Virus record (IMG/VR): IMGVR_UViG_3300034019_002140
Strand: one strand, 5' to 3'
Length of the DNA stretch: 16,947 nucleotides
Source of the DNA: a virus
Lineage: Duplodnaviria > Heunggongvirae > Uroviricota > Caudoviricetes
Positions 1-16,947 of the stretch are shown piece by piece. How positions within the stretch are numbered: position 1 is the first letter of the stretch; every line of letters begins with the position of its first letter. Position numbers and translations under genes: made by a program. The notes beneath the pieces were generated by a model. It saw only the letters and a list, made by a program, of their open reading frames with translations. It did not search any database and had not been told where the DNA came from.

Positions 1-1011
1 AGCTCAGGTTCTTCAGGAACAAGCGGAAGCTCAGGTAGCTCAGGAACGTCTGGTTCATCTGGTACGAGCGGTTCATCAGGAACATCTGGCTCATCAGGTT
101 CATCAGGAACATCTGGCTCTTCTGGCTCAAGTGGAACATCAGGTAGCTCAGGTTCAAGTGGAACATCAGGTAGCTCAGGTTCAAGTGGAACATCTGGTTC
201 ATCTGGAACAAGTGGTAGCTCAGGTTCTTCAGGAACAAGCGGAAGCTCAGGAACCTCTGGTTCATCGGGTACTAGTGGAGTTAGTGGAGCAAGTGGAACA
301 TCAGGTTCATCAGGAACAAGTGGCTCGAGTGGTACATCTGGTTCTTCAGGAACATCTGGTTCGAGTGGTTTATCAGGTACGAGCGGTAGCTCAGGAACGT
401 CTGGTTCATCAGGAACCTCAGGTAGCTCAGGAACGTCTGGTTCATCAGGAACCTCAGGTAGCTCAGGAACGTCTGGTTCATCTGGTACGAGCGGTAGCTC
501 AGGTACATCAGGAACTGCAACAATCAATAACAACACAAACAACTACATTCTTACCGCAACAGGAACTGCTGGTGTCATAAATGGTGAACAAAACTTTACG
601 TTTGATGGTACAAACGCTGTAATGGGATTACAGACAGAAGCAACATTCACTTTGTATGGAGACTTTACAGCGTCTTCTAAATCATTCGACATTCCTCACC
701 CAACAAAATCTGGAATGAGGTTGAGATACGGTGTGTTGGAAGGTCCTGAACATGGTGTATATGTCAGAGGTGTTGTAACTTCAAATGTAATTGAATTACC
801 AGATTATTGGACCGAGTTAGTTGATTCAAATAGTATAACGGTTCAGTTTACATCAATCGGAGAACCAAACACTCACTTTGTTGTTAAAATTGAAGATAAT
901 AAAGTTTATGTTGATTCAGAAAAAGGAAATATAAACGCTTACTTCTTCATACAAGCTGAACGTAAAGACGTAAATCCACCACTACTCGAATACATTCCAA
1001 CGAAACCTTAA
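1..1011 (+). CDS. 5'-truncated collagen-like (X-Ser-Gly)n virion fibre/appendage protein with C-terminal putative intramolecular-chaperone (Peptidase_S74-like) domain
   Basis: Frame 1 is open from base 1 to TAA at 1009-1011; track ORF 622..1011 is only its tail. Translation: SSGSSGTSG...(1-513), then TATINNNTNNYILTATGTAGVINGEQNFTFDG, then SKSFDIPHPTK..LRYGVLEGPEHGVYVRG..IELPDYW..AERKD, a C-terminal signature I recognise from phage fibre proteins. The chaperone assignment is inference. Confidence 0.85.
   Translation, partial: SSGSSGTSGSSGSSGTSGSSGTSGSSGTSGSSGSSGTSGSSGSSGTSGSSGSSGTSGSSGSSGTSGSSGTSGSSGSSGTSGSSGTSGSSGTSGVSGASGTSGSSGTSGSSGTSGSSGTSGSSGLSGTSGSSGTSGSSGTSGSSGTSGSSGTSGSSGTSGSSGTSGSSGTSGTATINNNTNNYILTATGTAGVINGEQNFTFDGTNAVMGLQTEATFTLYGDFTASSKSFDIPHPTKSGMRLRYGVLEGPEHGVYVRGVVTSNVIELPDYWTELVDSNSITVQFTSIGEPNTHFVVKIEDNKVYVDSEKGNINAYFFIQAERKDVNPPLLEYIPTKP
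127..194 (+). repeat. Exact 27-bp tandem repeat, ~2.5 copies
   Basis: tcaagtggaacatcaggtagctcaggt at 127-153 and 154-180, partial copy from 181. Confidence 0.9.
385..482 (+). repeat. Exact 36-bp tandem repeat, ~2.7 copies
   Basis: ggtagctcaggaacgtctggttcatcaggaacctca at 385-420 and 421-456, partial copy at 457-482. Confidence 0.9.
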
Positions 1012-1021
1012 AAATAAATTC

Positions 1022-1052
1022 AAGGAGAGAAGAAATTCTCTCCTTTTTTTTT
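1022..1052 (+). terminator. Rho-independent terminator after the fibre gene
   Basis: Perfect 10-bp stem AAGGAGAGAA (1022-1031) / TTCTCTCCTT (1036-1045), GAAA tetraloop, T9 tract at 1044-1052, 10 nt after the stop codon. Confidence 0.9.
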
Positions 1053-1080
1053 ATTTAATTGTTATATTAAAAGAAAAAAC

Positions 1081-1467
1081 ATGAGGAAACCTTCAGTTGT
1101 AAATGTTCATGAGTGTCCCGAATGCAAAATACCAAAGGGTTGGGGGCATGAAATTATTATAATAAATGACCCACTTTATTGTGGTAAAGTTTTAGTATTC
1201 AAAAAGGGTGCAAAGTTCTCTATGCATTATCATATGATTAAAGACGAAACTTGGTATGTAAATTCAGGTGAGTTTATTTATAGATGGATTGATGTGGAAA
1301 CCGCAGATACTATGGAAACAATACTAAAACCTGGTGATACTGTTAGACAATTACCTGGTCAACCACATCAATTAGAAGCTATCACTGATGGCGAAGTATT
1401 TGAAGTATCAACTCAACATTTTGATTCAGATTCATATAGAGTATGGAAAGGGGACAGCCAAAAATAA
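1081..1467 (+). CDS. Single-domain metal-binding cupin, sugar(-phosphate) isomerase/epimerase-like
   Basis: Cupin motif 1 SMHYH-x3-DETWYVNSG and motif 2 GDTVRQLPGQPHQL (His/His/Glu/His ligands intact); N-terminal KGWG resembles the KPWG of PMI-type cupins; first gene of the heptose module. Confidence 0.8.
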   Translation: MRKPSVVNVHECPECKIPKGWGHEIIIINDPLYCGKVLVFKKGAKFSMHYHMIKDETWYVNSGEFIYRWIDVETADTMETILKPGDTVRQLPGQPHQLEAITDGEVFEVSTQHFDSDSYRVWKGDSQK

Positions 1468-1748
1468 TATACGTAGATATAGATGGGACTATTTGTAGTT
1501 TAGTCAAAGATTATAACGAAGCGGAACCATTCCCTCATCATATTGATAAAATAAATAAATTGTATGATGAAGGTCACACGATTGTTTATTATACTGCAAG
1601 AGGGCAGAAAACAAAACGTGATTGGAGTGAACTGACATTCAAACAATTGAATGAGTGGGGTTGTAAGTTTCACGAATTAAAAATGAACCACAAACCCCAT
1701 TATGATTTGATAATTTGTGACAAATCAAAAAGAATTGAAGAATTATGA
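1443..1748 (+). CDS. Small HAD-superfamily phosphatase (capsule-biosynthesis phosphatase, BcbF/EcbF-like)
   Basis: Motif I IYVDIDGTIC, motif II YYTARG, C-terminal KPHYDLIICDK. The ATG overlaps the cupin gene by 25 nt, so the exact start is uncertain. Confidence 0.8.
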   Translation: MERGQPKIIYVDIDGTICSLVKDYNEAEPFPHHIDKINKLYDEGHTIVYYTARGQKTKRDWSELTFKQLNEWGCKFHELKMNHKPHYDLIICDKSKRIEEL

Positions 1749-2134
1749 AAGTTTGGGTAAATGGTACATTTGACATATTACACATAGGTCATATAAAACT
1801 TTTGGAATTTGCATCTCAATTTGGTTATTTAAGAGTAGGAATAGACACAGATAAAAGAGTTAAAGAATTGAAAGGGGAAGACAGACCCTTCAACACTCAA
1901 GATGATAGAAAAAAAATGCTAGAATCCATAAAATTTGTTGATGAAGTGGTGTTATTCGATTCAAGAGAAGAACTCATCGAAAACGTAAAAAACTTCTCAC
2001 CTGACATTATGGTCATCGGTGATGATTATAAAGAACAAATAGTGTACGGAAGTGAACACGCAAAAAAACTTGTTTTCTTTGAAAAAATACCAAACTATAG
2101 TTCAACAAAAATTTTAAATTATTATAAAAAATGA
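1745..2134 (+). CDS. hldC: D-glycero-beta-D-manno-heptose 1-phosphate nucleotidyl(adenylyl)transferase, RfaE domain II/HldC-like
   Basis: HIGH motif NGTFDILHIGH, GIDTDKRVKELKGEDRP (cf. GLNSDxSVxRLKGxxRP of HldC), GDDY, C-terminal SSTKI; adjacent to an HldA-like kinase. Confidence 0.8.
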   Translation: MKVWVNGTFDILHIGHIKLLEFASQFGYLRVGIDTDKRVKELKGEDRPFNTQDDRKKMLESIKFVDEVVLFDSREELIENVKNFSPDIMVIGDDYKEQIVYGSEHAKKLVFFEKIPNYSSTKILNYYKK

Positions 2135-2871
2135 TAAAAATACTTGTTGTTGGAGAACTTTGTGAAGATAATTTCATATACGGAGAGTGTAAAAGACTTT
2201 GTCCTGAAGCTCCAGTTCCTGTAATGAATCCTGTACAAACCATACAAAATCCTGGAATGTCAGGTAATGTTGTGGAGAACCTCAAGGCTCTTGAGCAAGA
2301 TTGTAGTATTGAGCATTGGTATCAAAGTGAAAGAGTATTCAAAACTAGATTTGTTGATAGAAAAACTAATCACATGTTTTTGAGATTGGATGACGGTGAG
2401 TCATATATTTCACCTATGACCCATTCACAGGAAAGATTGTCTAGTATAAAAAATTTCGATATTGTTATTGTATCTGATTATAATAAAGGTTTTTTAGATG
2501 ATGAATGGTTAAAATATTTGGGGAAATTCTCCAAACTTTCCATTCTCGACTCCAAAAGAAAACTAAATAGAGAAATAGTCGATTCATTTACGTTTGTAAA
2601 GTTGAATGAAAAAGAGGCTAATAACAATTTAGATTTACAAAATTGTAAAAACATAATAGTCACTTTAGGGGAAAAAGGTGCTAAGTATGACGGTACCATT
2701 TATAAAAGCCCCAAACCACAAGAAACGATAGATGTCAGTGGAGCTGGTGATACATTCACTACTGCCTTTATATTGGCTTATTTCAAAACAAAAGACATTG
2801 AAGAGTCAATAATCTATGCTAATGAAAAATCTTCGATAGTGGTTTCTAAAAGAGGAGTAGCAACCCCTTAA
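2131..2871 (+). CDS. hldA: D-glycero-beta-D-manno-heptose 7-phosphate kinase, RfaE domain I/HldA-like (PfkB family), compact 246 aa
   Basis: HldA-specific RLCPEAPVPV (cf. RISPEAPVPV), GMSGNV, KTRF, SDYNKG, VTLGEKG, and the PfkB anion-hole motif DVSGAGDTF. Confidence 0.85.
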   Translation: MIKILVVGELCEDNFIYGECKRLCPEAPVPVMNPVQTIQNPGMSGNVVENLKALEQDCSIEHWYQSERVFKTRFVDRKTNHMFLRLDDGESYISPMTHSQERLSSIKNFDIVIVSDYNKGFLDDEWLKYLGKFSKLSILDSKRKLNREIVDSFTFVKLNEKEANNNLDLQNCKNIIVTLGEKGAKYDGTIYKSPKPQETIDVSGAGDTFTTAFILAYFKTKDIEESIIYANEKSSIVVSKRGVATP

Positions 2872-3500
2872 TATTTATAAAAATTTTCTTGATGTCTTCG
2901 ATAATAGAGGAGACCCTCTTCCACATGACTTAAAGTCGCACCTCTTTTTATCATTTTTTCCCATAGATTCAGGTCCTCATCTGTCCTTATACTTGTAAAA
3001 TTATTTGCATAACCACCACTTTCTAATGCAAGTTTTGTGTTATATAACATAGACCCATGATGTTTGAATTTTCTGGACCAATAAAAATCACCCATAGTTT
3101 TAGTTATTTCATTTGGGTAAGTAGTAATTATTTCATGTCTTAGTGTTCCTGTAACTATAACATCAAAAGTTACAATATCGGTGTGAGGTTTCATATAAGT
3201 TAAACGCTCTAGTGTATCTGCACGCAACCAATTATCCGCACCTAAAAACATTACGAAATCAGTATCTACTTTTTGGAGCATATCTTGGAAATTTTTGACA
3301 ACCCCATAATTTTCTTTCCTGAAAACAAAATGTATTGTAGGATATAATTTTTCAAGAAAATAACAATCACCTACACCATCGTCTACAAACCATATTTTGT
3401 CAAATTTTTTTGTTTGACATAGAACTGATTCTATGCAATGGGATGCTAAGTGACCATATTTGTATGAACTAATAACTAAACCGTAAGTTTTATTTTTCAT
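2868..3500 (-). CDS. GT2-family (GT-A fold) glycosyltransferase
   Basis: ISSYKYGHLASHCIESVLCQT, FVDDG, FVMFLGADNWL (degenerate DxD), TDEDLNLW, YYRRH. Confidence 0.85.
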   Translation of the reverse strand: MKNKTYGLVISSYKYGHLASHCIESVLCQTKKFDKIWFVDDGVGDCYFLEKLYPTIHFVFRKENYGVVKNFQDMLQKVDTDFVMFLGADNWLRADTLERLTYMKPHTDIVTFDVIVTGTLRHEIITTYPNEITKTMGDFYWSRKFKHHGSMLYNTKLALESGGYANNFTSIRTDEDLNLWEKMIKRGATLSHVEEGLLYYRRHQENFYKY

Positions 3501-4380
3501 AATTTAACCAATTATTTATTTTATCCATCACCATTTGTGGTGTTATTGATGTGTGACATTCAAACTGTCTCTCAGTACCTTTATGTTTGGGACACCAATA
3601 CCAGTCTTCATTGTCAAAATATAGTCCCTTTCCGACCTGATTCCAACATCCATGACAAACAGATTTATTTGTAATTCTAACGTAATCATTTGTTGATAAA
3701 TCAAATTCATGTGATTCTTCGGTGAAATTAGAAATCATACAAACCTTTTTTCCCATGGCATGAGCCAACCATGAAAGTCCTGAAGAAAGTCCAATAAAAA
3801 ACTCTGAGTGGTGAATGTAATTCATAGTATCCAAAAGGGATATACCAAAAACTTTTTGGGCTTTTGTTGGCATTCCATTTCTGAATGGAGGTAGTCCGAA
3901 CATTTCATCCCTTTCAATTATTACAGGGGTATATCCCTTTTTTCTTATCATACCTGAAAGTTCGGACCAATTTGGTGATAATGGTTGAACAGAGATACCA
4001 TCTTTATGATTCCAATATTTTAACTGTGATGTTGAGTGTATACTCATGGAAACATATTTATTTTTTATTGGTCTATCAGATGTGAATGAATCAACTTTTG
4101 GTCTAATATATGACCAATCTATAAATCCGAGTTGATTGGCGTATCCTGTTTGTAATGGTTTAGTGTGGTTATAGACCAAATCAATTTTTTTATCAAAATT
4201 CATATCCTCCGAAAAATATTTTATTTTCGGAAAAGAATTTCTAAATAAAAATTCGAAGTTTTTGTTTATTTGTAACAAAACATTATCACTACTTCGCTCA
4301 ATGAAATAATCAACACATGGCATGATGGCGATTGTATCTCCTAATGAGTTTGAAAGTAGTTTAATCAAGATTGTTTTCAT
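3490..4380 (-). CDS. aah: Aah/TibC-family (autotransporter strand-loop-strand) O-heptosyltransferase, catalytic part only
   Basis: SLGDTIA catalytic-Asp motif, HSTSQLKYWN, FFIGLSSGLSWLAHA, ISNFT..HEF, and the Fe-binding Cys4 segment VCHGCWN..FDNEDWYWCPKHKGTERQFECHTSITP (Cys codons at 3657, 3648, 3594, 3558). The symbol is family-level only. Confidence 0.85.
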   Translation of the reverse strand: MKTILIKLLSNSLGDTIAIMPCVDYFIERSSDNVLLQINKNFEFLFRNSFPKIKYFSEDMNFDKKIDLVYNHTKPLQTGYANQLGFIDWSYIRPKVDSFTSDRPIKNKYVSMSIHSTSQLKYWNHKDGISVQPLSPNWSELSGMIRKKGYTPVIIERDEMFGLPPFRNGMPTKAQKVFGISLLDTMNYIHHSEFFIGLSSGLSWLAHAMGKKVCMISNFTEESHEFDLSTNDYVRITNKSVCHGCWNQVGKGLYFDNEDWYWCPKHKGTERQFECHTSITPQMVMDKINNWLNYEK

Positions 4381-6659
4381 AATTCTAAACTTTGGAAAAC
4401 TTGTAATGGTGTTATTGACCTTTGACAGATGTGCTGTTTTTTAGTTCCCTTATAGACGGGACACCAATCCCAATCTCCAGCATCAAAAACAAATACTTCA
4501 TCATTCCAACAAAATATACAAACGTTGTTTTGAATACGTGTTATTTTACTTGTGAATTCATGACCAGGTTTAGAAAAACCATTTATCATGTAAGTATGTT
4601 TACCCAAACCCCAATTCAACCAAGAAAGTCCTGAACCTAACCCTATGAATGCTTTTGCATGATATAAGTAATTTGCAACCACATTCAAACTTTCACCCCA
4701 AATATTTGTCGTACCTTCAATCATGAAAGGGTTTTTTGTTATGATAACAACTTCATATCCTATTTCTTGCAACAATTTTGATAAGGTTACCCAACTATTA
4801 TAGTCCCATTCTTTACAACCTGAAGTTGCGTTTGGTCCAAATACAACATAATCTTTATCTAATGGAGAATCACCTTTTTTGAAATCTAAACCTAAGTTCA
4901 ATTCTTGAAAATCTAATCCCAAAATGTCTGAGGATGTCTGTTGTATTGGGATTAAATTTACTTGATTTGGGTATTTGTCAAAAACTTCCCATTTATTATT
5001 TTCTTTGAACCAGCCAATCCTGTATATTGCATGACACGTATGAGAAACACCTGGTTTAATAAATTTGATATTTTCGTATGTCTTTAAATTTTGGAAAAAC
5101 TCATTATGAAAGGTTGCCATAATAACTTTACATTTATGTTTTTCTGCAAATTTTACGGCATATGGTGTCCAAGCTATTGTGTCACCAAGAGAACTTGACT
5201 CCAAGGTTATCATCACTTCTTTACCCTCTAAGTCTAACTTATCGAATAATTTTCCATTTATCTTTATTTCCCATGGAATGTAATATTTTTTTCCGCAAGC
5301 GGTCCACATGTTATTACTTATTGTTTGTGAATGTATAACTTCTCCTGTATCCGAATTTATAAATTCAACAAGATAATTTTCCTTATCGTCTCCCAAAACC
5401 TCAACTCTCGGACCATCTAAATATGAAACAATAATTTCATTTTTTTTCTTTGGTTTGGGGGGTAATGATTTATGTCTTTTCAAAAAATCTTTGATTGTAT
5501 CTAACCCAATCTTAGCAACATTTTCCCAATTGAAATCTTTTCTAATTTTTTCGGAATCAATCAACGCAGTTTTTTTAATGGATTCGTAATTTTCGTAGGC
5601 GTATTTCATTACTCTCGATAAATCCTCAAAATCAGGTTCATAGTAATTCCCAACATTGTCGTTAAAATGGTTGTAAGTACTTGCACTTACAGGTAGCTCG
5701 TGTGATATTTTTACAGGAAGACCTTTGTTTTTTGCAAATTCTAACTGACCTGAACAGTTCGAATATATTGATGGTGTACCACAAGCCATAGATTCAATTA
5801 GAGGAAGGTTCCAACCTTCAGACCTCGCACATGAAACAAATACACTACATGATTTTAGAAGTTTGATGTACTCTTCTCTTGGTGGAAAATGTAAAATTTT
5901 TATTCTTTCATCTTCAAGTTCATAATGTTTCAATCTTTCTTCAGTGGAGCTCAATCCATCGTTGGAAAAAGGATTATCTACTGATATTATCAATTCAACA
6001 TTTACAGTTTTATCAAACGTTTTTATAAATGTTTCGATAATTTCCTTTATCGATTTCCTGTAGTCCCAACGACCGGCTAAGAAGAATGTAAATTTTCCTT
6101 CGGTCAAAGGGTGTTTTGCATTCTTATCGGGATAAAAAGTTTTGATGTCTACACCTTCAGGGACAACTTTTATTTTATCTGAGGGATATCCTTGTTTCAC
6201 AGTACAATCTTTCTGCCATTCAGAAGGAACCCACAATTCGTCAAACTCTAATAATTTATTAAAATAACCCTGTGGTTGTAGTGTAGACTCCCAAACATTA
6301 TATGCAATCTTTGGACCCTCGTATTCATCATAAAAAAGATTATGATTAGTTTCACACAAAACTATGTTCAAGTCCTGTTCGAACTCTTTGGATTCATCAG
6401 GATAGATTTTATAATTACTTCTTTTACCTCTAGCGGCATCATCCCAAAGTACTTGTTCATATAATAATTCTCTATCTGTTTGGTTGAAATATGGTTCTTC
6501 ATTGTGAGGTTCTAAGTTGTAACCTTTCCAAGAGTTTCCAACGGTAAAATTTCGGAACTTTATTTTGGCATGTTTTGATAAATGTCTAAAAAAATCCCTC
6601 GTGTGTTGATTATAACCTGTATTTCCAACGTAGGAACCGTGTGCATATATTTTAATCAT
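4377..6659 (-). CDS. Fusion: N-terminal GT4 glycosyltransferase + complete Aah/TibC-family O-heptosyltransferase
   Basis: GT4 part (~5480-6659): WVPSEW, VVPEGVD, ARSEGWNLPLIESMACGTPSIYSN. Basic linker PPKPKKK. Then beta-rich module IIVSYLDGPRVEV (~5441-5230), SLGDTIAWTPYAVKF, FIGLGSGLSWL and Cys4 motif C-x2-C-x15-C-x11-C (Cys codons at 4520, 4511, 4463, 4427). Confidence 0.88.
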   Translation of the reverse strand: MIKIYAHGSYVGNTGYNQHTRDFFRHLSKHAKIKFRNFTVGNSWKGYNLEPHNEEPYFNQTDRELLYEQVLWDDAARGKRSNYKIYPDESKEFEQDLNIVLCETNHNLFYDEYEGPKIAYNVWESTLQPQGYFNKLLEFDELWVPSEWQKDCTVKQGYPSDKIKVVPEGVDIKTFYPDKNAKHPLTEGKFTFFLAGRWDYRKSIKEIIETFIKTFDKTVNVELIISVDNPFSNDGLSSTEERLKHYELEDERIKILHFPPREEYIKLLKSCSVFVSCARSEGWNLPLIESMACGTPSIYSNCSGQLEFAKNKGLPVKISHELPVSASTYNHFNDNVGNYYEPDFEDLSRVMKYAYENYESIKKTALIDSEKIRKDFNWENVAKIGLDTIKDFLKRHKSLPPKPKKKNEIIVSYLDGPRVEVLGDDKENYLVEFINSDTGEVIHSQTISNNMWTACGKKYYIPWEIKINGKLFDKLDLEGKEVMITLESSSLGDTIAWTPYAVKFAEKHKCKVIMATFHNEFFQNLKTYENIKFIKPGVSHTCHAIYRIGWFKENNKWEVFDKYPNQVNLIPIQQTSSDILGLDFQELNLGLDFKKGDSPLDKDYVVFGPNATSGCKEWDYNSWVTLSKLLQEIGYEVVIITKNPFMIEGTTNIWGESLNVVANYLYHAKAFIGLGSGLSWLNWGLGKHTYMINGFSKPGHEFTSKITRIQNNVCIFCWNDEVFVFDAGDWDWCPVYKGTKKQHICQRSITPLQVFQSLEL

Positions 6660-6711
6660 TAGGACAAATTTTATTGAAATATAGTTAAATTCAAACTATA
6701 ATTAAAGTAGA
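6660..6711. promoter_or_regulatory. 52-bp divergent promoter region with a central inverted repeat
   Basis: Plus strand: TTGAAA (6674-6679)-17 bp-TATAAT (6697-6702), 9 nt before ATG 6712. Minus strand: TTTG (6695-6692)-19 bp-AAAATTTG (6672-6665), one mismatch from the Bacteroidota TAnnTTTG -7 box, 5 nt before ATG 6659. Inverted repeat TATAGTT (6680-6686)/AACTATA (6694-6700). AT richness raises the chance of coincidental matches. Confidence 0.55.
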
Positions 6712-10223: not shown

Positions 10224-11149
10224 ATAAAAAAATCGCACTAATAAGTTCCTTTTGTGATACAAATGAAAAGTTAGATGTTTTAAAAAAAAACATATCAATA
10301 GTCAAGTCCCAAGGTATTGATGTTTTGGTTATAAGTCCTTTTGTTATAGATAAGAAAATTACGGAAATGTGTGATTACTTTTTTATTACAAAAGATAATC
10401 CAATTTTAGATTGGCCTGAACGTTCGATGTTTTATTGGAGAATTCTAAGTAATAATAATTCTAGTTACAAATTATCTGTGACATACGCAGATTATGGTTT
10501 TGCGGGATTGTATCAAGTCAAACAATTGAGTGATATTGCACTAACCTTTGGATATGAACAATTTTTTCACATGATATATGATATTAAAATCACAGAGGAC
10601 TTCAAAGAATTTTTCAATTCCGATAGAAAATGTTCAATTTTTCCATCCAAAAGAGATAATCAAATTTGGCCCTTTGGATTACACTTTATGATATTCGATA
10701 GGTTAAACTTAGAAAAATTTTCTTCTATGATTACTTTGAAAAATTATTTAAGTGTGGAAAACAGTGATGCTTTTTCTTGGTTAGAGGTATATCGGAAACA
10801 ATTGAATTCTGACATAGAAAAAATACCGGTAGAAGATGAAATATTTTATTACGAGAATAAGGATTTTTTAAATTTTTCACCATTTGATTCCGTCAAGTTT
10901 TTTATAGAAAAAAATGATGAACAAGATGAAAATGTAAAATTATTTTTTTACGACATAACCGATGAAATCGAAGTCAAAATTATTATAGATAATATAAAAT
11001 ATACCCGTAAAATTAATAACCTTGATTTAATTGATTTGGGATATAAGAAAAATGAAATAAAGAATACTAGTATACAAATTGCTGATACAAATAAAAACAT
11101 TACAGAGATAATAAAAAAAATTAAACATAACACACTTCAGAAATTATGA
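10220..11149 (+). CDS. Hypothetical protein, possibly a divergent GT-A-like glycan enzyme
   Basis: 309-aa ORF coupled by ATGA overlaps on both sides; alternating beta/alpha N-terminus (IALISSFCD, VLVISP, YFFITKDNP) and FFHMIYD segment. No family recognised with certainty, so confidence applies to the CDS rather than the function. Confidence 0.75.
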   Translation: MNKKIALISSFCDTNEKLDVLKKNISIVKSQGIDVLVISPFVIDKKITEMCDYFFITKDNPILDWPERSMFYWRILSNNNSSYKLSVTYADYGFAGLYQVKQLSDIALTFGYEQFFHMIYDIKITEDFKEFFNSDRKCSIFPSKRDNQIWPFGLHFMIFDRLNLEKFSSMITLKNYLSVENSDAFSWLEVYRKQLNSDIEKIPVEDEIFYYENKDFLNFSPFDSVKFFIEKNDEQDENVKLFFYDITDEIEVKIIIDNIKYTRKINNLDLIDLGYKKNEIKNTSIQIADTNKNITEIIKKIKHNTLQKL

Positions 11150-11694
11150 TAGAAAATCTTCATTTATGGTTAGCCGACAGAGGAACTTATTTTGACAGGA
11201 ATGTCAATATAATTTCTTGGAGCGATGAGTATAAAGTTAGAGTTGGTAAATATTGTTCGATAGGTAGAGATTGTAATTTTTTCTTACACGCCAATCACCG
11301 ACCTGATTGGATTACAACTAGCTCACAACTTTGGGGACCTGTTACTCCTGAGATAGCATCTCTTCACATGCAAATGGGTCATCCATCTTGTAAAGGGGAT
11401 ATTATTGTGGGTAATGATGTTTGGATTGGTGCTAAATCAACAATTATGTCAGGAGTGAAAATAGGGGATGGTGCCATAGTAGCTGCGGGTGCGTTGGTGA
11501 CAAAAGATGTTGAACCATATTCCATAGTGGGTGGCAATCCTGCAAAATTATTAAAATACCGCTTCGATAAAAGTCAAATTGAAGAGTTACTGAAAATAGA
11601 ATGGTGGTCTTGGGATGAAAGCAAAATCAAAGAGGAGGGAATGATTCTTTGGAGTTCCGATATAAATTATTTCATTGAAAAACATAAAAAATGA
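11146..11694 (+). CDS. CatB/Vat-related hexapeptide-repeat O-acetyltransferase
   Basis: VGKYCSIG, KGDIIVGNDVWIGAKSTIMSGVKIGDGAIVAAGALVTKDVEPYSIVGGNPAK and C-terminal LLKIEWWSW typical of xenobiotic acyltransferase-type LbH proteins. Confidence 0.88.
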   Translation: MIENLHLWLADRGTYFDRNVNIISWSDEYKVRVGKYCSIGRDCNFFLHANHRPDWITTSSQLWGPVTPEIASLHMQMGHPSCKGDIIVGNDVWIGAKSTIMSGVKIGDGAIVAAGALVTKDVEPYSIVGGNPAKLLKYRFDKSQIEELLKIEWWSWDESKIKEEGMILWSSDINYFIEKHKK

Positions 11695-12527
11695 TAAATG
11701 TTACTTATAATAAAGACGGTATACGAGTTGACTTTGGTGAAATAAGTAAGTTCAACAATAATTTACCTTTGAGGCTAAAAATAAAAAAACATGTCAGTGG
11801 AGAGACACAATGGGAAACAAATGTTCATGATTTTTGGTTTGCAACTTATCCAAACACTGAGATGTTTGACGTAGAAATTTCTGACTCTTTTGGTCATATT
11901 TTGTATAGAAAAAATTGGGACGTCATAGAGCATGGTAACTATTTTTACAAGGCTTTATTTTTGTATAATAAAAAACTCATTTCTAATGGTATTTTTCCAA
12001 AAGGTTTGGTTATCGGTACACATGATGGGGAATTTGGTGAATGGGTACCAATTGCTTTGAGAAGAGAAGCTAAGATGTTTTTAGTTGAGGCGTCCGAAAA
12101 ACAATTTAACAAGTTGAACTTAAATTACAATAATAATTCTTGTATAAAAACATTTAGACAATTGATTACTCCAAATGGGGGTGAAGTAAAATTCTATGAA
12201 GGGGGTCAAGGTTATACAAATAGTGTGGATGAAACTGTGATTAAAAATTGGGAAAAAGAAGAGATAAATTGTACAGTCAGAGATTCTATGAGTATCAACG
12301 ACTTCATTGAAAAAAATTGCGATGGTAAACTAGATTGGATTCACTTAGATGTCGAAGGATTGGATGCAAATTTAATATTATCACTTCACCCTAAATTTCT
12401 AACAAATTTTATAATATTTGAAGATTATAATCTTGTGCCAGAGCAAAAAGAAATTCTTACCGATTATCTAAAATCGAACGGGTATCTTTTACATTCCCAC
12501 GAAGGAATTTGTTTAGCCTCAAAATAA
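11691..12527 (+). CDS. FkbM-like methyltransferase with N-terminal beta-rich accessory module
   Basis: Atypical motif I GLVIGTHDGEFG, FLVEAS, WIHLDVEGLD, IIFED; the first ~77 aa resemble the module preceding the heptosyltransferase domain of 4377..6659. Confidence 0.75.
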   Translation: MINVTYNKDGIRVDFGEISKFNNNLPLRLKIKKHVSGETQWETNVHDFWFATYPNTEMFDVEISDSFGHILYRKNWDVIEHGNYFYKALFLYNKKLISNGIFPKGLVIGTHDGEFGEWVPIALRREAKMFLVEASEKQFNKLNLNYNNNSCIKTFRQLITPNGGEVKFYEGGQGYTNSVDETVIKNWEKEEINCTVRDSMSINDFIEKNCDGKLDWIHLDVEGLDANLILSLHPKFLTNFIIFEDYNLVPEQKEILTDYLKSNGYLLHSHEGICLASK

Positions 12528-12534
12528 TAGGAAT

Positions 12535-12963
12535 ATGAAAATTATATCACACCGAGGAAATTTATTTGGTAATAAAGTGGACGAAGAGAACAAGAAATCA
12601 AGTGTGGTTAGAGCAATAGAATTAGGATTTGATGTTGAGATTGATTTTTGGCATACAGAAAAAGGTTTTTTTTTGGGTCACGATAGTCCTGAGGAATCTG
12701 TGACACTAGAATGGCTTTACGAAGTGAAAGATAATTTGTGGGTTCATTCAAAAAATTTAGATTCAATAAGAATTTTGAAACAAACAGAATTAAATTGGTT
12801 TTGGCACGAAAATGACAGAATGACAATTACGAGTAAAGGTTTTATTTGGTGTAATTACAACGTAATTGTCCCTGAGAGTATCATTGTTGAACTTGATTAT
12901 AAAATACTCCCTGATACATTATATGGGGTCTGTACTGATAAACCATTAGAATATAGAAAATGA
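12535..12963 (+). CDS. Short GDPD/PLC-like phosphodiesterase (142 aa)
   Basis: IISHRGN (catalytic His/Arg), GFDVEID, FLGHD (second His), WVHSKN, C-terminal GVCTD. Confidence 0.75.
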   Translation: MKIISHRGNLFGNKVDEENKKSSVVRAIELGFDVEIDFWHTEKGFFLGHDSPEESVTLEWLYEVKDNLWVHSKNLDSIRILKQTELNWFWHENDRMTITSKGFIWCNYNVIVPESIIVELDYKILPDTLYGVCTDKPLEYRK

Positions 12964-14324
12964 TAAAACTCATAATTTTTGATTTGGATGGGGTTTTAGT
13001 CGAAACTAAACACATACATTTTCTAACTTTAAATAACGCCATAGAGTCAATTGGGGGTTCTAATTTTATTATCTCAGAAAAGGAACATCTATCAATTTAC
13101 GACGGTTTGAAAACCTATGAAAAACTAAAAATTCTCACCAAAGAAAAGGGTTTATCGGAAGAGTTTTATAAAGAAATTTGGGAACTAAAACAGAATTTGA
13201 CTTTGAATTCTATCAGTAAACTTTCTCCAAACAATAGACTGATAGAAATAATGAAAAAACTTAGAGAAAAAAATTTTAAAATTGCATGTTGTTCTAATTC
13301 TATCCGTCGTTCTGTTCTTATCATGTTATCCAAGCTTGGATTGATTGAGTTCATGGATTTGATTCTTTCTAACGAAGATGTTAAAAACGGTAAACCACAT
13401 CCCGAAATTTATTGGTCTGCTATGAGTAGTATGGGTTTTTTACCTGACGAGACACTTATAATAGAGGATTCACCACACGGTTTGTTGGCTGCAAATAGAA
13501 GTAAAGCTCACGTACTCAGGGTCAACAATCCCGAGGATGTCACATACGAAAAAATTTTATCAATTTTGGAAAAAAATATAGTTTACAAAAAACCTAAGTG
13601 GAAAGATAATAATTTGAACGTACTAATTCCTATGGCGGGAGCTGGTTCTAGATTCGAAAATGCGGGATATACCTTCCCAAAACCATTGATTGATGTGAAT
13701 GGAGAGCCCATGATTAAAGTTATTGTCGAAAATTTGAATATTGATGCTAATTTTATTTATATCGTTCAGAGGAATCACAGGGAAAAATATAATCTTGATA
13801 CCCTATTAAACTTGATAACGCCAAATTGTCAAATTGTTGAGGTTGATGGTGTTACACAAGGTGCCGCAGTGACCACTCTTTTGGCTAAGAGTTTAATAAA
13901 TAATGAACGACCTCTTCTTATTTCAAACTCAGACCAATACGTAGAGTGGAACTCAAATGAGTTTCTTTATAAAGTTTATGAAACTAAATTAGATGCTGCT
14001 ATCCTCACTTTCAAATCCACCCATCCAAAATGGTCGTTCGTTAAATGTGATGAATTCGGATATGTTACCGAGGTTGCAGAAAAAAAACCTATTTCAGACA
14101 AAGCAACTGTTGGGATTTACTATTGGTCGAAAGGAAGTGATTATGTAAGATATGCAGAACAAATGATTTCAAAAAACATAAGAACCAATAATGAATTTTA
14201 TGTTTGTCCCGTTTTTAATGAGGCTATTGAGGATAAAAAAAGAATAAAGACCTATGATGTAGAAAAAATGTTCGGACTCGGTACTCCTGAAGATTTGAAG
14301 TTTTACTTAGAAAATTACAAATAA
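12960..14324 (+). CDS. Fusion: HAD-IA (beta-PGM/CbbY-like) phosphatase + BcbE-like nucleotidyltransferase
   Basis: HAD motifs FDLDGVL, CSNS, GKPHPE, IEDSPHG; NTP-transferase motifs IPMAGAGSRF..PKPLI, NSDQY, VGIYYW, LGTPEDL. Confidence 0.85.
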   Translation: MIKLIIFDLDGVLVETKHIHFLTLNNAIESIGGSNFIISEKEHLSIYDGLKTYEKLKILTKEKGLSEEFYKEIWELKQNLTLNSISKLSPNNRLIEIMKKLREKNFKIACCSNSIRRSVLIMLSKLGLIEFMDLILSNEDVKNGKPHPEIYWSAMSSMGFLPDETLIIEDSPHGLLAANRSKAHVLRVNNPEDVTYEKILSILEKNIVYKKPKWKDNNLNVLIPMAGAGSRFENAGYTFPKPLIDVNGEPMIKVIVENLNIDANFIYIVQRNHREKYNLDTLLNLITPNCQIVEVDGVTQGAAVTTLLAKSLINNERPLLISNSDQYVEWNSNEFLYKVYETKLDAAILTFKSTHPKWSFVKCDEFGYVTEVAEKKPISDKATVGIYYWSKGSDYVRYAEQMISKNIRTNNEFYVCPVFNEAIEDKKRIKTYDVEKMFGLGTPEDLKFYLENYK

Positions 14325-14326
14325 AA

Positions 14327-14512
14327 TTATTTAGAAGTTTTTTTCAAACTTTCTTTTTCTTTTCCATTATAAAGTTTCATCAGTCTGAGTGAATCTTTGT
14401 AATGCTTTTCAAGCCTATCTAACTCTTCAATAGGTGTATTACTCTCGCAGGCTAAATTATATTGTTCTTCGGCCTCTTGAATAATTTTCTTTATTGTCTT
14501 CAATAATTTCAT
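14327..14512 (-). CDS. Small helical hypothetical protein (61 aa)
   Basis: ATG at 14512 (MKLLKTIKKIIQEAEE...) is preferred over the track's TTG at 14530; amphipathic, charged helical sequence; TATTTATA lies 3 nt upstream on the coding strand. Confidence 0.65.
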   Translation of the reverse strand: MKLLKTIKKIIQEAEEQYNLACESNTPIEELDRLEKHYKDSLRLMKLYNGKEKESLKKTSK

Positions 14513-14593
14513 ACTTATAAATATTATCAAACCCTTCCTTTATTTAAATGTTTATGAAATTATATTTTAAATGTATAAAATCCTCAATCGGGT

Positions 14594-14610
14594 TATTTAT
14601 TGTATAAATA
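14594..14610 (+). promoter_or_regulatory. Candidate late-promoter element TATTTAT-TGT-ATAAATA (7-bp inverted repeat containing TATAAATA)
   Basis: TATAAATA (14603-14610) matches the T4-type late promoter consensus and lies 10 nt before ATG 14621; the same octamer occurs at 14516-14523 just upstream of the divergent small gene. The motif is all A/T, so chance occurrence is plausible. Confidence 0.4.
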
Positions 14611-14620
14611 GAATTTTTTA

Positions 14621-16947
14621 ATGGGTGTATTTTCCGCACTTTATGACCTTTCTTTGACTACTGGCTCAATAACCGGTATTACACCCTCATTGTATAGCAA
14701 TCTTGTTGGTAGTTTTCCAATTGGTCCTAGTGAATCAGGAAATTATGTTTCTGGAGATACTGAAAACTTTTCAGGTATTGTAGAAGTAGGATGGACTGGT
14801 GTAACCGACAGTTTTCCTTATTTGGAATTATATATTGATAATAGTTTAAACCAACAACTCAGTTGGACGGGAGATGGTATATACGATTTTACAACTATAA
14901 ATGTTACAACATCAAACGATGTTGAGATTGTTGCTAAAAACATCATACCTCCTACGTCCACACTTTCACCCACACCATCACCGACACCTATTTCTTGTGT
15001 AAACATTGTGGCTACTGAAATTTCTCCCATTCCACAATCAGGAATTTATAATTATTTTGGTGTAAACGTTGCTTTGAATCCTTGGCCTGTTGACGAAAGT
15101 GTCACAGTCAGTGGAACAATCAGCACCGACACAAATACTTCTGATTGGACTTTGACTATAGGGTCAGGTTCTCAATCGGCAGAAACCTCAAATACTTTCA
15201 TTCAGGGAAGTCCCACGTCAAGTGCTAACATCACAGTAACTGGGGTCACACCTACCCAAGTTACTTTCGAGGGTAATCCGTACTATATTTGTGGATTTGA
15301 ACCTGAACCATCGGCGACTCCGACAGAGACACCAACTCAAACTCCATCAGAAACTCCTACCAACACGCCTACTATTACAGAAAGTCCTACTGAAACACCA
15401 ACACAAACTCCAACAACCACTACCACTTTGACCGAAAGTCCTACTAACACACCTTCAACAACACCCACAATTACTGAGAAACCCACGGAAACACCCACCG
15501 AGACACCAACTCAAACGCCATCAGAAACACCAACACAAACTCCAACAACCACTACCACTTTGACCGAAAGTCCTACTAACACACCTTCAACAACACCTAC
15601 AACCACCGAGACACCAACTGAAACACCAACGCAGACTCCAACAAACACCGCATCAAATAGTCCGACACCCTCAACAACAGCTACAGTGGGAGGAACACCA
15701 ACTGCAACTGAAACGCCAACTGAAACGCCTACAGAAACTCCAACTGAAACACCTACAAATACACCCACAAACACAGAAACTCCAACTAATACACCCACAA
15801 ATACAGAAACTCCCACTAATACACCCACAAATACAGAAACACCAACACCTACCCCAACAGACCCAGACCCTCCAATTCCAGCTCCAACAGACACGCCAAC
15901 TGAAACGCCTACAGAAACTCCAACTGAAACACCTACTACAACTGAGACACCAACGACCACACCTACATTTGATTTGTCTCCAACTCCAACTAATACAGAA
16001 ACACCAACCCCAACACCTACCCCATCAACTCCTTGTAATTGTACATTCTTTGATGTTACGATTGCTCAGGCGGATTTAGATGATGCGACAGGTAATACAC
16101 CATCATCTTTGAACAACACAATTTTCGTTGATTATTATGATTGTTACAACGTATTGAACACGTTGAGTTATGTCGATGCGGGTACTTTTAATAATTCTTT
16201 TTGCGCGAATTATGTTCAGGCAACATATTATTATAAAAACAATACAGCGCTCTTTCCTGTATCGTCCTTTGATACGGACACATTTGTTGATTGTTGTATT
16301 ACACCTACTCCAACTACTACTCCCACTGAAACACCATCACAAACACCTACCGTTGATACCTCAGCAACACCAACTACTACAGAGACTCCAACACCTACCC
16401 CAACCACCACAGAAACCCCGACAAATACACCTACTGTTGATACATCGGCAACTCCGACCACTACAGAGACGCCAACACAAACTCCAACCCCTTCAACTCC
16501 CTGTAATTGCACATATTTCGATGTTACAATAGCTCAGGCCGACTTGGACGATGCTACAGGTAATACACCTTCGAGTCTCAATAATACCGTGTTTATCGAT
16601 TACTACGATTGTTATAATGTTCTCAATACTGCAAGTTTTGCGTATGCGGGAACATTTAACAATTCATTCTGTGCAAATTATGTTCAAGCAACATACTATT
16701 ACAAAAACAACATAACACTCTTTCCTGTAAGTTCTTACGGGACGGACACATTTGTTGATTGTTGTGTTACTCCGACACCAACTACCACCCCAACAGAAAC
16801 GCCAACGGAAACTCCAACTAATACACAAACACCAACTACCACCCCAACAGAAACGCCAACGGAAACTCCAACTAATACACAAACACCAACAACCACTTCA
16901 ACTATAGGAGCATCGCCCACAGCTACTGAAACACCCACCTCAACACC
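14621..16947 (+). CDS. 3'-truncated large mucin-like Thr/Pro-rich modular protein with Cys-bounded globular domains (probable virion surface fibre/adhesin); absent from the ORF track
   Basis: Frame 2 read codon by codon from ATG 14621 has no stop to the window end (775 codons). Layout: globular domain (~14621-14945), short PT linker, domain bounded by Cys 14996 and Cys 15290, long TPTETPT linker (~15302-16033), Cys6 domain copy 1 (16034-16297), linker, copy 2 (16502-16765), linker. Confidence 0.9.
15302..16033 (+). repeat. Thr/Pro/Glu low-complexity coding linker with internal exact duplications
   Basis: 74-bp exact duplicate 15392-15465 = 15524-15597; 44-bp exact duplicate 15713-15756 = 15893-15936; ~30-bp imperfect tandem x3 at ~15751-15846. 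Confidence 0.85.
16034..16765 (+). repeat. Dispersed duplication of an 88-aa six-Cys domain (16034-16297 and 16502-16765)
   Basis: CNCT(F/Y)[24 protein letters not shown]...TDTFVDCC; 77/88 aa identical; offset 468 nt. Confidence 0.95.
16775..16890 (+). repeat. Exact 54-bp tandem repeat, ~2.1 copies ([18 protein letters not shown])
   Basis: 16775-16828 = 16829-16882, partial third copy to 16890. Confidence 0.85.

Follow-up and report, generated by a model that had tools for sequence, protein, structure and literature searches.

What does a phage do with a set of sugar-related genes that lies beside a gene for a giant fibre? The locus considered here was analysed as one stretch of 16,947 nucleotides, referred to below as the window. 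Since genes for ADP-heptose synthesis, relatives of the transferases TibC and Aah, further sugar-modifying enzymes and the giant fibre gene are all found in one 16-kb block, this large uncultured phage most likely coats its own fibre with sugar. Judged from sequence, it is reasonably probable that a cytoplasmic system encoded by this jumbo phage attaches O-glycans to its giant, proline-free, collagen-like fibre. A literature search found no publication on such phage fibre heptosylation. A preliminary description of the window had proposed fibre glycosylation by the phage; those parts of this interpretation that computational analysis could test were supported, with all listed elements found where they had been placed (Table 1).

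Table 1. Features of the window, with strand and supporting matches
Position	Strand	Feature	Basis
1..1011	+	Collagen-like fibre gene, 3' end; proposed acceptor	5'-open; Pfam Collagen E 1.6e-25
1022..1045	+	Terminator-like hairpin	10-bp stem then T run, just 3' of the fibre stop codon
1081..1467	+	Metal-binding cupin, putative sedoheptulose-7-P isomerase in the place of GmhA	Cupin_2 E 1.9e-8; weak Lyx_isomer match
1443..1748	+	Small HAD phosphatase, putative GmhB analogue	DIDGT motif; HAD-IIIA E 2.3e-6; GmhB PRK08942 E 0.002
1745..2134	+	HldC-like heptose-1-P adenylyltransferase	TIGR02199 best match, 97.7 bits (below cut-off 181.5), E 5e-28
2131..2871	+	HldA-like heptose-7-P kinase, PfkB fold	TIGR02198 best match, 124.9 bits (below cut-off 345), E 3.5e-36
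2868..3500	-	GT2 glycosyltransferase	PF00535 E 3.4e-13
3490..4380	-	Short TibC/Aah-like transferase, 296 aa, without N-terminal barrel	
4377..6659	-	GT4 (residues ~100-390) fused to complete TibC/Aah-like unit (~406-758), 760 aa	
6674..6702	+	Promoter-like site, the best in the window	11/12 matches; in the 53-bp divergent gap between enzyme operons
6712..8574	+	DUF6625 domain and C-terminal half with GT8/GT34-like atlas lead	PF20330 E 7e-28
8571..10223	+	FkbM-type methyltransferase fused to Methyltransf_24-like domain	
10220..11149	+	Predicted GT-A glycosyltransferase with C-terminal beta-sandwich	AF2 model pLDDT 91
11146..11694	+	Hexapeptide-repeat O-acetyltransferase, Vat/CatB-like	
11691..12527	+	FkbM-type methyltransferase	
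12535..12963	+	142-aa protein	phrog_34507
12960..14324	+	Beta-phosphoglucomutase-like HAD fused to sugar-1-P nucleotidyltransferase	HAD_2 E 3e-30; NTP_transferase E 9e-9
14621..16945	+	Thr/Pro-rich protein, 5' part of gene	30% Thr, 14% Pro

Viral context and the collagen-like fibre gene

By its sequence, the context of the window is viral. The window has a relative at 72% identity in a 317-kb IMG/VR contig rated 100% complete by CheckV; synteny is kept, and the proteins of the two are 47-76% identical. The terminase proposed as a check of viral origin was found on this contig (Terminase_6N). Profile searches of the window, also proposed earlier, matched TIGR04414, GT2 and GT4 and returned HldA and HldC as best families.

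The fibre reading frame opens with exactly 57 unbroken XSG triplets (30 SSG, 24 TSG and 3 others), followed by a conserved C-terminal domain of 166 aa. The fibre had been described as (XSG)57, which holds for the window but is only the in-window portion of a longer repeat: in the longest assembly (L033), the repeat of this gene exceeds 1000 aa, and the 5' end is still open. The C-terminal domain has 1403 homologues, some of which are complete proteins with XSG triplets ahead of the domain, and this confirms the reading frame. In a fold search, no solved structure matched the domain significantly. The fibre is putatively a part of the virion, on the one ground that its collagen-type PHROG matches are annotated as tail fibre.

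Donor synthesis

HldC- and HldA-like genes had been noted at 1081-2871. Both are present, but the block consists of four genes, as the cupin and a HAD phosphatase of 101 aa precede them. Atlas neighbours of the cupin are themselves viral cupins, whose leads are Lyx_isomer or MannoseP_isomer, and a cupin accompanies HldA in 27 of 45 viral loci. As the window has no HldD epimerase, the expected product is the D,D form, the natural donor of TibC. The earlier term "self-contained" suits the phage of the window but not its relatives in general, as five of them (one complete) carry TibC genes and lack both HldA and HldC. This counts against heptosylation of the fibre and implies either that the donor genes are dispensable or that the donor may differ.

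TibC/Aah-like transferases

Two Aah/TibC-type units had been recognised before, and both indeed have the LGD aspartate and the four cysteines. The fusion protein scores 215.4 bits against TIGR04414, above the cut-off of 200, and matches PDB 4RAP (E 3.8e-37) and Glycos_transf_1 (E 4e-16). The short paralogue matches PDB 4RB4 (E 1.4e-31), stays below the same cut-off with 188 bits and has serine at the position of TibC Pro300, as in Aah. The key residues defined for TibC are Asp110, Thr226, Lys230, Trp305 and Cys339/342/358/370, of which the catalytic Asp lies in LGD, Thr226 and Lys230 contact the beta-phosphate, Trp305 contacts heptose O4 and the four cysteines form the iron finger (PMC4358343). 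All of them are invariant in 42 non-redundant phage homologues. Both transferases are real relatives of TibC and Aah, with catalytic and donor-phosphate residues intact at the sequence level.

Other features of TibC are not kept. Arg286 makes contact with adenine, and mutants at this position had little or no activity left; the hydrophobic thumb tip Phe265/Val266 is required both for dodecamer formation and for activity towards TibA (PMC4358343). All phage homologues have Val, Thr or Leu in place of Arg286, and the thumb tip in the window is Thr-Thr on a shorter hairpin. Both count against heptosylation of the fibre, and a dodecameric ring is therefore doubtful for the phage enzymes. As to the acceptor, TibC modifies serine only and accepts synthetic peptides, and its mapped site in TibA, Ser313, lies within N-S-G-G. 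The known BAHT substrates are beta-helix autotransporters and not collagen-like (PMC4358343), a further point against the fibre.

Further sugar-modifying enzymes

The preliminary description had listed further glycosyltransferases, methyltransferases and an acetyltransferase; profile matches confirmed a GT2 enzyme, FkbM and Methyltransf_24 methyltransferases and a hexapeptide acetyltransferase, and the window holds three methyltransferase domains. Searches of PDB sequences gave no match for the 142-aa protein or for the DUF6625 protein, the latter being probably a double GT-A protein. An additional enzyme, absent from the earlier list, is encoded at 10220..11149. No Pfam family matched it, but its model was similar in Foldseek to glycogenin, a PBCV-1 capsid glycosyltransferase and the LH3 glycosyltransferase domain (E 5e-5 to 2e-4), and it is predicted to be a further GT-A glycosyltransferase; its homologues are frequently fused to a class I methyltransferase. 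The HAD-nucleotidyltransferase fusion is a likely source of a second NDP-sugar.

Co-occurrence of transferase and fibre genes

The proposal that transferases and Ser/Thr-repeat genes co-occur across related phages was examined with a criterion of at least 30 Gly-X-Y triplets in a run. A Ser/Thr-rich reading frame of this kind lies within 5.2 kb in 22 of 42 TibC loci, compared with 1 of 35 HldA loci without TibC (Fisher p 8e-7, with loci not all independent). The pairing recurs in four divergent clades, three with 57-72%, 39-40% and 35-36% identity to the window and one represented by the isolate Microcystis phage Mel-JY01, and the other neighbours differ among these clades. In the complete 317-kb relative, the sole (S/T)SG gene runs across the contig junction and lies directly beside the enzyme block. 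This adjacency and the co-location across the four clades back the XSG fibre as acceptor candidate.

Three loci of another phage lineage (L048, L049 and L052) have GT4-TibC, cupin, HldC and HldA overlapping and co-directional in one operon, which faces a fibre reading frame as long as 2941 aa, with 634 consecutive Gly-X-Y triplets. In L058, the order is fibre, HAD, cupin, HldC, HldA and a GT9-like gene. In relatives, methyltransferase or other glycosyltransferase domains take the place of GT4. Two observations count against the fibre: 20 of the 42 TibC loci have no Ser/Thr-rich fibre in reach, many of these contigs being short or ending near the gene, and the adjoining collagen-like gene of L003 and L004 is not Ser/Thr-rich.

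Proposed pathway

In a first step, the cupin may act as isomerase instead of GmhA, and the HldA-like kinase, the small HAD phosphatase (possibly standing in for GmhB) and the HldC-like adenylyltransferase would complete the route to ADP-heptose. Family membership and gene linkage suggest that both TibC-like units, the fused one and the shorter paralogue, would then move heptose onto serines, and possibly threonines, of the (S/T)SG triplets. Next, the glycan might be lengthened by the fused GT4, the GT2, the DUF6625 protein and the GT-A protein, with the second NDP-sugar for extension presumably supplied by the HAD-nucleotidyltransferase fusion, and the three methyltransferase domains and the acetyltransferase could tailor it. 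More speculatively, the decorated trimeric fibre would finally be built into or onto the virion, where the glycan might stabilise or shield its proline-free triple helix.

Alternative explanations

It is unlikely, but deserves consideration, that the TibC-like enzymes heptosylate another protein (the Thr/Pro-rich modular proteins, another virion protein or a host surface adhesin) and that the collagen-like gene is a mere neighbour from the structural module. The nature of the known BAHT substrates and the 20 TibC loci without a Ser/Thr-rich fibre in their available flanks would fit this explanation. The Thr/Pro mucin-like gene is present as described earlier, encoding a protein of 1577-1639 aa at full length with two Cys-rich modules of ~110 aa, and such a gene lies beside the locus in the window and likewise in L010, L018, L020 and L030. 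However, at least seven are scattered over the genome of the complete relative (G001), so the gene is not specifically associated with the locus, and none was flagged in the 39% clade (L021-L029; the screen left out L048-L059). As a second acceptor, the Thr/Pro-rich protein is a weak candidate. The window gave no match to an autotransporter domain, and the pairing with Ser/Thr-rich collagen genes in four clades with otherwise differing neighbours also speaks for the fibre.

Remodelling of the host envelope (LPS core or capsule) by an auxiliary metabolic block, for instance against superinfection, is the usual reading of cyanophage "LPS genes" and is distinctly improbable here. ADP-heptose is the donor for the LPS core, GT9 LPS heptosyltransferases are homologues (PF01075 match), and marine-phage papers take such clusters as cell-surface modification (PMC12801897). 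The fusion, however, scores 215 bits with the TibC model and 22 bits with that of LPS heptosyltransferase I, and the TibC-specific Cys4 finger and N-terminal barrel are conserved. In agreement with the earlier claim that membrane segments and export genes are lacking, no 19-residue stretch of any window enzyme has a Kyte-Doolittle mean above 1.8, and profile searches of the window gave no family match for a flippase, polymerase, ABC exporter or initiating transferase. The complete relative has no reading frame with six or more hydrophobic segments, no polytopic membrane protein and no export machinery.

Just as improbable is the use of a donor other than ADP-heptose by the TibC-like units, with the heptose operon feeding a different transferase of the block. 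The loss of the adenine-contacting Arg286 and the close relatives with TibC but without HldA or HldC are in line with this idea, as is the putative nucleotide specificity of the HldC-like protein, which scores 79.5 bits as a TagD-type cytidylyltransferase versus 97.7 as HldC. On the other hand, no variation occurs at Trp305, Thr226 or Lys230, three loci have GT4-TibC in a single overlapping operon together with cupin, HldC and HldA, and the relatives could take ADP-heptose from a Gram-negative host.

Hypermodification of bases in the phage DNA, known from T-even phages and others, is extremely improbable: phage GT-B enzymes are often DNA-glycosylating (PMC12619734), but profile searches of the window gave neither a base-hydroxymethylase nor a DNA-modification gene, and the substrates of the TibC family are proteins. 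Glycan tailoring suits the FkbM methyltransferases and the sugar-type acetyltransferase, and the co-location with the fibre would be left unexplained.

Comparison with known systems

Glycosylation of the phage's own fibre would most closely resemble TibC/TibA and Aah/AIDA-I of E. coli (BAHT; TIGR04414; PDB 4RAP/4RB4; PMC4358343). The catalytic unit is homologous, with a GT-B-like core and, in the phage long form, the N-terminal barrel; the LGD aspartate, Thr226, Lys230, Trp305 and Cys4 iron finger are common to both. Enzymes of both kinds are cytoplasmic and soluble and target a repetitive Ser-rich protein (putatively so in the phage) in a Ser-Gly context such as NSGG of TibA, with a heptose nucleotide as likely donor. 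In contrast, the phage enzymes are phage-encoded and GT4-fused and have not kept Arg286 and the hydrophobic thumb tip. Where the E. coli enzymes act on a beta-helix autotransporter, the putative target in the phage is a collagen-like fibre without proline. The phage carries its own donor pathway, and extension of the monosaccharide, with methylation and acetylation to follow, is probable.

With the bacterial ADP-L-glycero-beta-D-manno-heptose pathway (GmhA, HldA/HldE, GmhB, HldC/HldE, HldD), the phage shares the HldA-like kinase, the HldC-like adenylyltransferase and a HAD phosphatase in the same operon, although the latter is a minimal form. SIS-type GmhA is absent, and a small metal-binding cupin would substitute for it; without HldD the product is presumably D,D-heptose.

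Cytoplasmic decoration of viral structural proteins by glycosyltransferases that the virus itself encodes has been described for mycobacteriophages (Freeman et al. 2023, as cited in PMC12619734); as summarised there, acceptors are capsid and tail-tube C-termini, and enzyme families and sugars differ. Among giant viruses, which glycosylate capsids and fibrils, Mimivirus L230 acts on the viral collagen-like protein L71, but with hydroxylysine-glucose chemistry and other enzyme families (PMC9614988). As far as these accounts describe them, none of the systems named has a BAHT-type enzyme or heptose.

A precedent for a densely O-glycosylated collagen-like fibre is BclA of the Bacillus anthracis exosporium filaments (PMC10050317). 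Its triplets are not (S/T)SG, it carries GalNAc, rhamnose and anthrose instead of heptose, its enzymes are unrelated, and the C-terminal domain of the phage fibre resembles no solved structure significantly. What is alike is a trimeric, collagen-like fibre at the surface, a repeat that varies in length, and triplets rich in hydroxy amino acids that are proposed to bear dense O-glycans added by dedicated enzymes.

Viral context and possible hosts

Megablast of the full window did not match any GenBank phage, and its viral context rests on relatives. The TibC unit, the domain resembling the bacterial autotransporter heptosyltransferases (BAHT) TibC and Aah, has relatives in 31 IMG/VR loci. Many assemblies, up to 102 kb in length, encode the identical GT4-TibC fusion protein, and in every assembly shown the locus lies about 7–9 kb from a contig end, with the break falling inside the XSG repeat of the fibre gene. 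In many relatives, too, assemblies break inside the repeat and the locus lies near a contig end. When five large relative contigs were searched whole, Terminase_6N was found on three. One of these, G001 (317,259 bp), was rated 100% complete by CheckV, and two contigs of 100 kb were rated about a third complete. G001 encodes proteins 47–76% identical to the GT4-TibC fusion, the short TibC paralogue, the DUF6625 protein, the acetyltransferase and FkbM of the window, in the same neighbourhood. This synteny and identity, together with the terminases of the relatives, place the window in a jumbo phage genome of roughly 300 kb and support the viral origin assumed in the preliminary description.

A profile search of genome contigs with the TibC alignment yielded only two short MAG contigs (Sediminibacterium and Lutibacter), both binned with Bacteroidota, which are at most a faint hint at the host. 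The Sediminibacterium contig (8 kb, L109) encodes a 1150-aa fusion with a TibC unit at its end and also a phage-type lysozyme-like ORF; it probably represents phage sequence that was assigned to a Bacteroidota MAG. A further host hint comes from the Microcystis phage Mel-JY01, the only cultured relative found, with a homologue 40% identical; its GT4-MT-TibC fusion lies 1.7 kb from a collagen-like gene. Nothing relevant on Mel-JY01 was found in a limited literature search.

Organisation of the locus

The GC content is about 30% across the 16,947 bp and about 44% in the two repeat-coding ends. Four transcription blocks were recognised, and the best promoter-like site of the window sits upstream of block 4. 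No tRNA genes were found in the window. Triplet count, profile searches and alignments confirmed the XSG fibre, the TibC domains with LGD and Cys4 motifs and the HldA- and HldC-like genes claimed earlier. New to that list are a cupin and a minimal HAD ahead of HldC and HldA, a predicted GT-A ORF and a longer repeat. The enzymes had also been described as free of transmembrane segments, with no flippase, polymerase, exporter or initiating transferase in the window. This was borne out, as no window enzyme contains a hydrophobic 19-mer with a Kyte-Doolittle mean above 1.8 and family searches of the window gave no match to export, flippase, polymerase or initiating-transferase families. In G001, ORFs with at least six hydrophobic segments were not found.

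Features of the window
Feature	Position	Strand	Remarks
Block 1, fibre gene	1-1011	+	3' end of gene
Terminator-like hairpin	1022-1045		10-bp stem, after fibre gene
Block 2, four-gene operon	1081-2871	+	cupin, 101-aa HAD, HldC-like, HldA-like; stops and starts overlap
HldC-like	1745-2134	+	block 2
HldA-like	2131-2871	+	block 2
Block 3, operon	6659 to 2868	-	GT4-TibC fusion, short TibC paralogue, GT2; convergent on block 2
GT4-TibC fusion (long form)	4377-6659	-	760 aa
Short TibC paralogue	3490-4380	-	296 aa
Block 4, operon	6712-14324	+	begins 53 bp from block 3; DUF6625, FkbM + Methyltransf_24 protein, 309-aa protein, hexapeptide acetyltransferase, second FkbM, 142-aa protein, HAD-nucleotidyltransferase fusion
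GT-A ORF	10220-11149	+	309 aa
142-aa ORF	12535-12963	+	
HAD-nucleotidyltransferase fusion	12960-14324	+	
Thr/Pro-rich gene	14621-16945	+	5' part, downstream of block 4

The TibC/Aah-like transferases

The long form reached 215.4 bits with TIGR04414, over the curated equivalog cut-off of 200, and the short paralogue 188 bits, just under it because its alignment starts at model position 83 and the first approximately 80 positions are missing. The Aah/TibC-type assignment was thus reproduced by the HMM search, above the cut-off for the long form and just below it for the short one. The sequence of the TibC crystal structure aligns to both (long form E 4e-37, short paralogue E 1e-31), and each of the two keeps the LGD Asp together with the four Cys. 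The TIGR04414 alignment of the long form begins at model position 9, covering a putative N-terminal beta-barrel, for which TibC_1st gave E 0.0015, below the Pfam cut-off; the short paralogue has no such barrel.

The TibC structure (eLife, PMC4358343) identified the catalytic base as Asp110 and placed Thr226 and Lys230 at the beta-phosphate, Trp305 at the heptose O4, and Cys339/342/358/370 in a ferric iron finger. In a residue comparison of 42 non-redundant phage homologues from four clades, Asp110, Thr226, Lys230, Trp305 and the four Cys of the predicted iron finger were invariant in all 42. At position 300, where Pro in TibC (Ser in Aah) selects between D,D and L,D (PMC4358343), the long forms carry Gly and the short paralogues Ser. 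Arg286 of TibC contacts adenine N1 and is highly conserved in BAHTs, and the R286A exchange abolished or largely diminished activity (PMC4358343). None of the 42 phage homologues keeps it; Val (long form of the window), Thr (short form) and Thr or Leu (other clades) were found instead, in a loop of uncertain alignment. Also not kept is the hydrophobic tip of the beta-hairpin thumb (Phe265/Val266), needed in TibC for the dodecamer and for activity (PMC4358343), which aligns to Thr-Thr in the window's long form within a hairpin region about 10 residues shorter. From this comparison, the sugar and phosphate chemistry appears conserved, whereas the adenine contact and the ring-forming element do not. 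Judged by their sequences, the phage proteins are a divergent BAHT branch and not TibC orthologues.

The branch comprises 1337 representatives at 50% identity (E up to 1e-3), and in most of the best 150 of these 1337 the TibC unit is C-terminal in a multi-domain fusion. Autotransporter or beta-helix adhesin families were not found in the window, and the recurrent neighbour is a collagen-like fibre rich in Ser and Thr.

The collagen-like fibre

The fibre ORF opens with 57 XSG triplets (30 SSG, 24 TSG and 3 others), with Gly at every third residue, and matches Pfam Collagen with E 1.6e-25; a collagen-like triple helix is predicted from this Gly-X-Y run. The count of 57 in the preliminary description is exact inside the window, but the repeat extends beyond it. 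In L033, the longest public assembly of this gene, the ORF is still open after more than 1000 aa and more than 330 triplets of (S/T)SG. Fibre ORFs in the compared loci reach about 3000 aa, with uninterrupted Gly-X-Y runs of up to 634 triplets. The fibre of G001, of at least 2100 aa, runs off both contig ends on the minus strand (4082 to 1 and 317258 to 314955). As both halves lie on the same strand, this is one gene across the junction of a contig that is a circle or circularly permuted and cut in the repeat. It is the sole (S/T)SG gene of G001 and directly adjoins the enzyme block; three other collagen-like ORFs lie 50 kb away and are not Ser/Thr-rich.

Annotation of such fibre genes suffers in that they are split, that the repeat is called on the wrong strand (L033 and Mel-JY01) and that assemblies are broken inside it. 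Public gene calls for L033:15649-19050 (-), corresponding to 1-1011 (+) of the window, include a spurious 977-aa ORF opposite the repeat and, in the true frame, no more than the final 129 aa. The GenBank annotation of Mel-JY01 (locus L032, 1-3052) is similarly mis-called; over these two loci, true-frame calls are limited to the last 129–178 aa. The plus-strand frame is taken as real because the run continues stop-free into a C-terminal domain with 1403 homologues, and because some complete homologues show XSG just ahead of this domain. The domain was modelled with pLDDT 79, and a Foldseek search did not bring up any PDB structure with E <0.001. A likeness to phage fibre or tailspike tips appeared in the top rows at E 0.2–0.5 and was not counted.

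Linkage between transferases and fibres

An ORF was counted as a candidate acceptor if it had an unbroken run of 30 or more Gly-X-Y triplets, with Ser or Thr making up at least 60% of X and Y, and every locus was scanned. Such an ORF lies at most 5.2 kb (often less than 2 kb) from the TibC unit in 22 of 42 TibC loci, compared with 1 of 35 HldA loci without TibC (Fisher p 8e-7, which overstates the significance, as the loci are not independent). The co-occurrence of transferases and S/T-repeat genes across related phages, which the earlier proposal had named as a check, was thus found in several clades. The positive loci belong to the window's clade (L001, L002, L005, L010, L018, L020, L030), the 39% clade (L021-24, 26, 29) and the 35–36% clade (L048-50, 53-56, 59), and include the isolate Mel-JY01; other neighbours differ among these clades. 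Many negative loci are short contigs or contigs ending beside the gene, a pattern that breakage of assemblies within the repeat would produce.

The residue modified by TibC is Ser, not Thr, and synthetic peptides also serve as its substrates. Two sites have been mapped in TibA, one of which, Ser313, lies in N-S-G-G, a context that fits the fibre as acceptor.

The Thr/Pro-rich protein had been proposed as a second, mucin-like acceptor, which found no specific support, as Thr/Pro-rich ORFs are spread over G001, at seven or more sites, and screening of the 39% clade (L021-L029) flagged none. The full gene encodes 1577–1639 aa, its length differing among assemblies, and the product matches phrog_15511 (unknown function) only. 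It contains a pair of nearly identical Cys-rich modules, each about 110 aa long and starting CNCT[FY]FDV, with TP linkers between them.

The putative donor pathway

TIGR02198 was clearly the best match of the HldA-like protein (124.9 bits, equivalog cut-off 345) and TIGR02199 that of the HldC-like protein (97.7 bits, cut-off 181.5), so both earlier assignments agree with the top family, at scores under the equivalog cut-offs. A SIS domain of the GmhA type was not found in the window, and a cupin, with only weak cupin matches in a PDB sequence search (about E 0.01), holds the first position of the operon. The 101-aa HAD carries a DIDGT motif and matches HAD-IIIA with E 2.3e-6 and GmhB with E 0.002, the latter far below the cut-off.

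Among 45 viral loci seeded with HldA, the cupin was alongside in 27 and HldC in 26, and owing to this co-occurrence cupin, HldC and HldA appear to form a travelling module. In ten of the 45 (L048-L056 and L059) a TibC unit is present as well, with only 35–36% identity to that of the window, whereas HldA reaches 60–63% and the cupin 71–73%. In L048, L049 and L052, the GT4-TibC fusion, cupin, (HldC) and HldA are co-directional with overlapping ends and hence form one operon. The order in L058 is fibre, HAD, cupin, HldC, HldA, a 427-aa GT9-type protein and a 1378-aa protein with GT17, methyltransferase, GT2 and GT4 domains. The phage TibC branch is predicted to use a heptose nucleotide, for which the operon linkage to HldA and HldC is the strongest available evidence.

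However, HldA was not found within 10 kb in any of the 31 TibC-seeded loci, and neither HldA nor HldC was found anywhere in the five large relatives, complete G001 included. Thus, the link between donor and transferase is not obligatory, and the earlier term "self-contained" holds for the phage of the window and the L048 group, but not as a general rule. In L048-L059, the cupin is 71–77% and HldC and HldA are 55–63% identical to those of the window. Since the donor genes match these loci better than the TibC unit does, and the closest relatives do not carry the module, transfer of the donor module between phage lineages is suggested.

Other enzymes of the window

The GT-A ORF had no Pfam family match. 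Its model (pLDDT 91) consists of a GT-A domain and a beta-sandwich and resembles glycogenin, the PBCV-1 capsid glycosyltransferase and the glycosyltransferase domain of collagen LH3 (E 5e-5 to 2e-4). Fusion to a class I methyltransferase is frequent among its homologues. A PDB sequence search with the DUF6625 protein was without match. The HAD-nucleotidyltransferase fusion joins a beta-phosphoglucomutase-like HAD to a sugar-1-P nucleotidyltransferase, its C-terminal half corresponding to phrog_3980 (unknown function, E 4.5e-76), and may provide a two-step route to a second NDP-sugar. The 142-aa ORF matches phrog_34507 only, with no Pfam, NCBIfam or PDB match, and has a 39%-identity homologue in the glyco-locus L058. 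An ISHRG motif at its start is reminiscent of glycerophosphodiester phosphodiesterases.

Proposed mechanism

Gene content, conserved catalytic residues, operon structure and recurrent linkage are observed directly, and a pathway may be proposed on them. Host sedoheptulose-7-P would be converted to ADP-D,D-heptose via cupin, HldA, HAD and HldC, no HldD being present. In the cytoplasm, the TibC units would O-heptosylate Ser of the (S/T)SG triplets. The glycan could then be extended by the fused GT4, GT2, DUF6625 and the GT-A protein, the second NDP-sugar coming from the HAD-nucleotidyltransferase fusion, and in a last step methyl and acetyl groups would be added. Speculatively, the glycan stabilises or shields a proline-free triple helix. 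The window encodes no recognised export machinery and G001 no ORF with at least six hydrophobic segments, which would fit modification before assembly and release by lysis. That the glycosyltransferases modify the phage DNA or the host LPS is ranked low. Overall, the proposed heptosylation of the fibre is well supported by comparative genomics.

A farther-reaching version might be considered, which we regard as rather unlikely. The (S/T)SG fibres would be collagen of a new type, forming a triple helix without proline, hundreds of nm long, whose folding or stability would need dense O-heptosylation by a BAHT branch working outside the dodecamer and beta-helix mode, fed by a fully phage-encoded ADP-heptose route with the cupin as an unrecognised sedoheptulose-7-P isomerase.

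Significance and comparison with known systems

To our knowledge, protein O-heptosylation has so far come only from enteric-bacterial autotransporter adhesins, and phage virion glycosylation only from mycobacteriophages. A limited literature search found nothing in which a BAHT-type enzyme and a collagen-like fibre are brought together in a phage. If the proposal is true, abundant aquatic jumbo phages coat their fibres by a complete pathway of their own, from the donor through the transferases to the tailoring enzymes, and the substrate range of BAHTs widens to collagen-like repeats. It could also explain how proline-free collagen-like fibres hundreds of nm long stay folded. The first step of heptose synthesis would then have an isomerase so far unrecognised, and virion modification would become the role of gene blocks that annotations often list as host "LPS genes".

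Glycosylated collagen-like fibres are represented by BclA (PMC10050317) and Mimivirus L71/L230 (PMC9614988), and virion glycosylation has been described for mycobacteriophages (cited in PMC12619734). Another close known system is the O-heptosylation of autotransporters (PMC4358343). With TibC and Aah, the phage units share the catalytic Asp, the phosphate and heptose contacts and the Cys4 motif, whereas they differ in the Arg286 position, the thumb tip and the type of neighbour.
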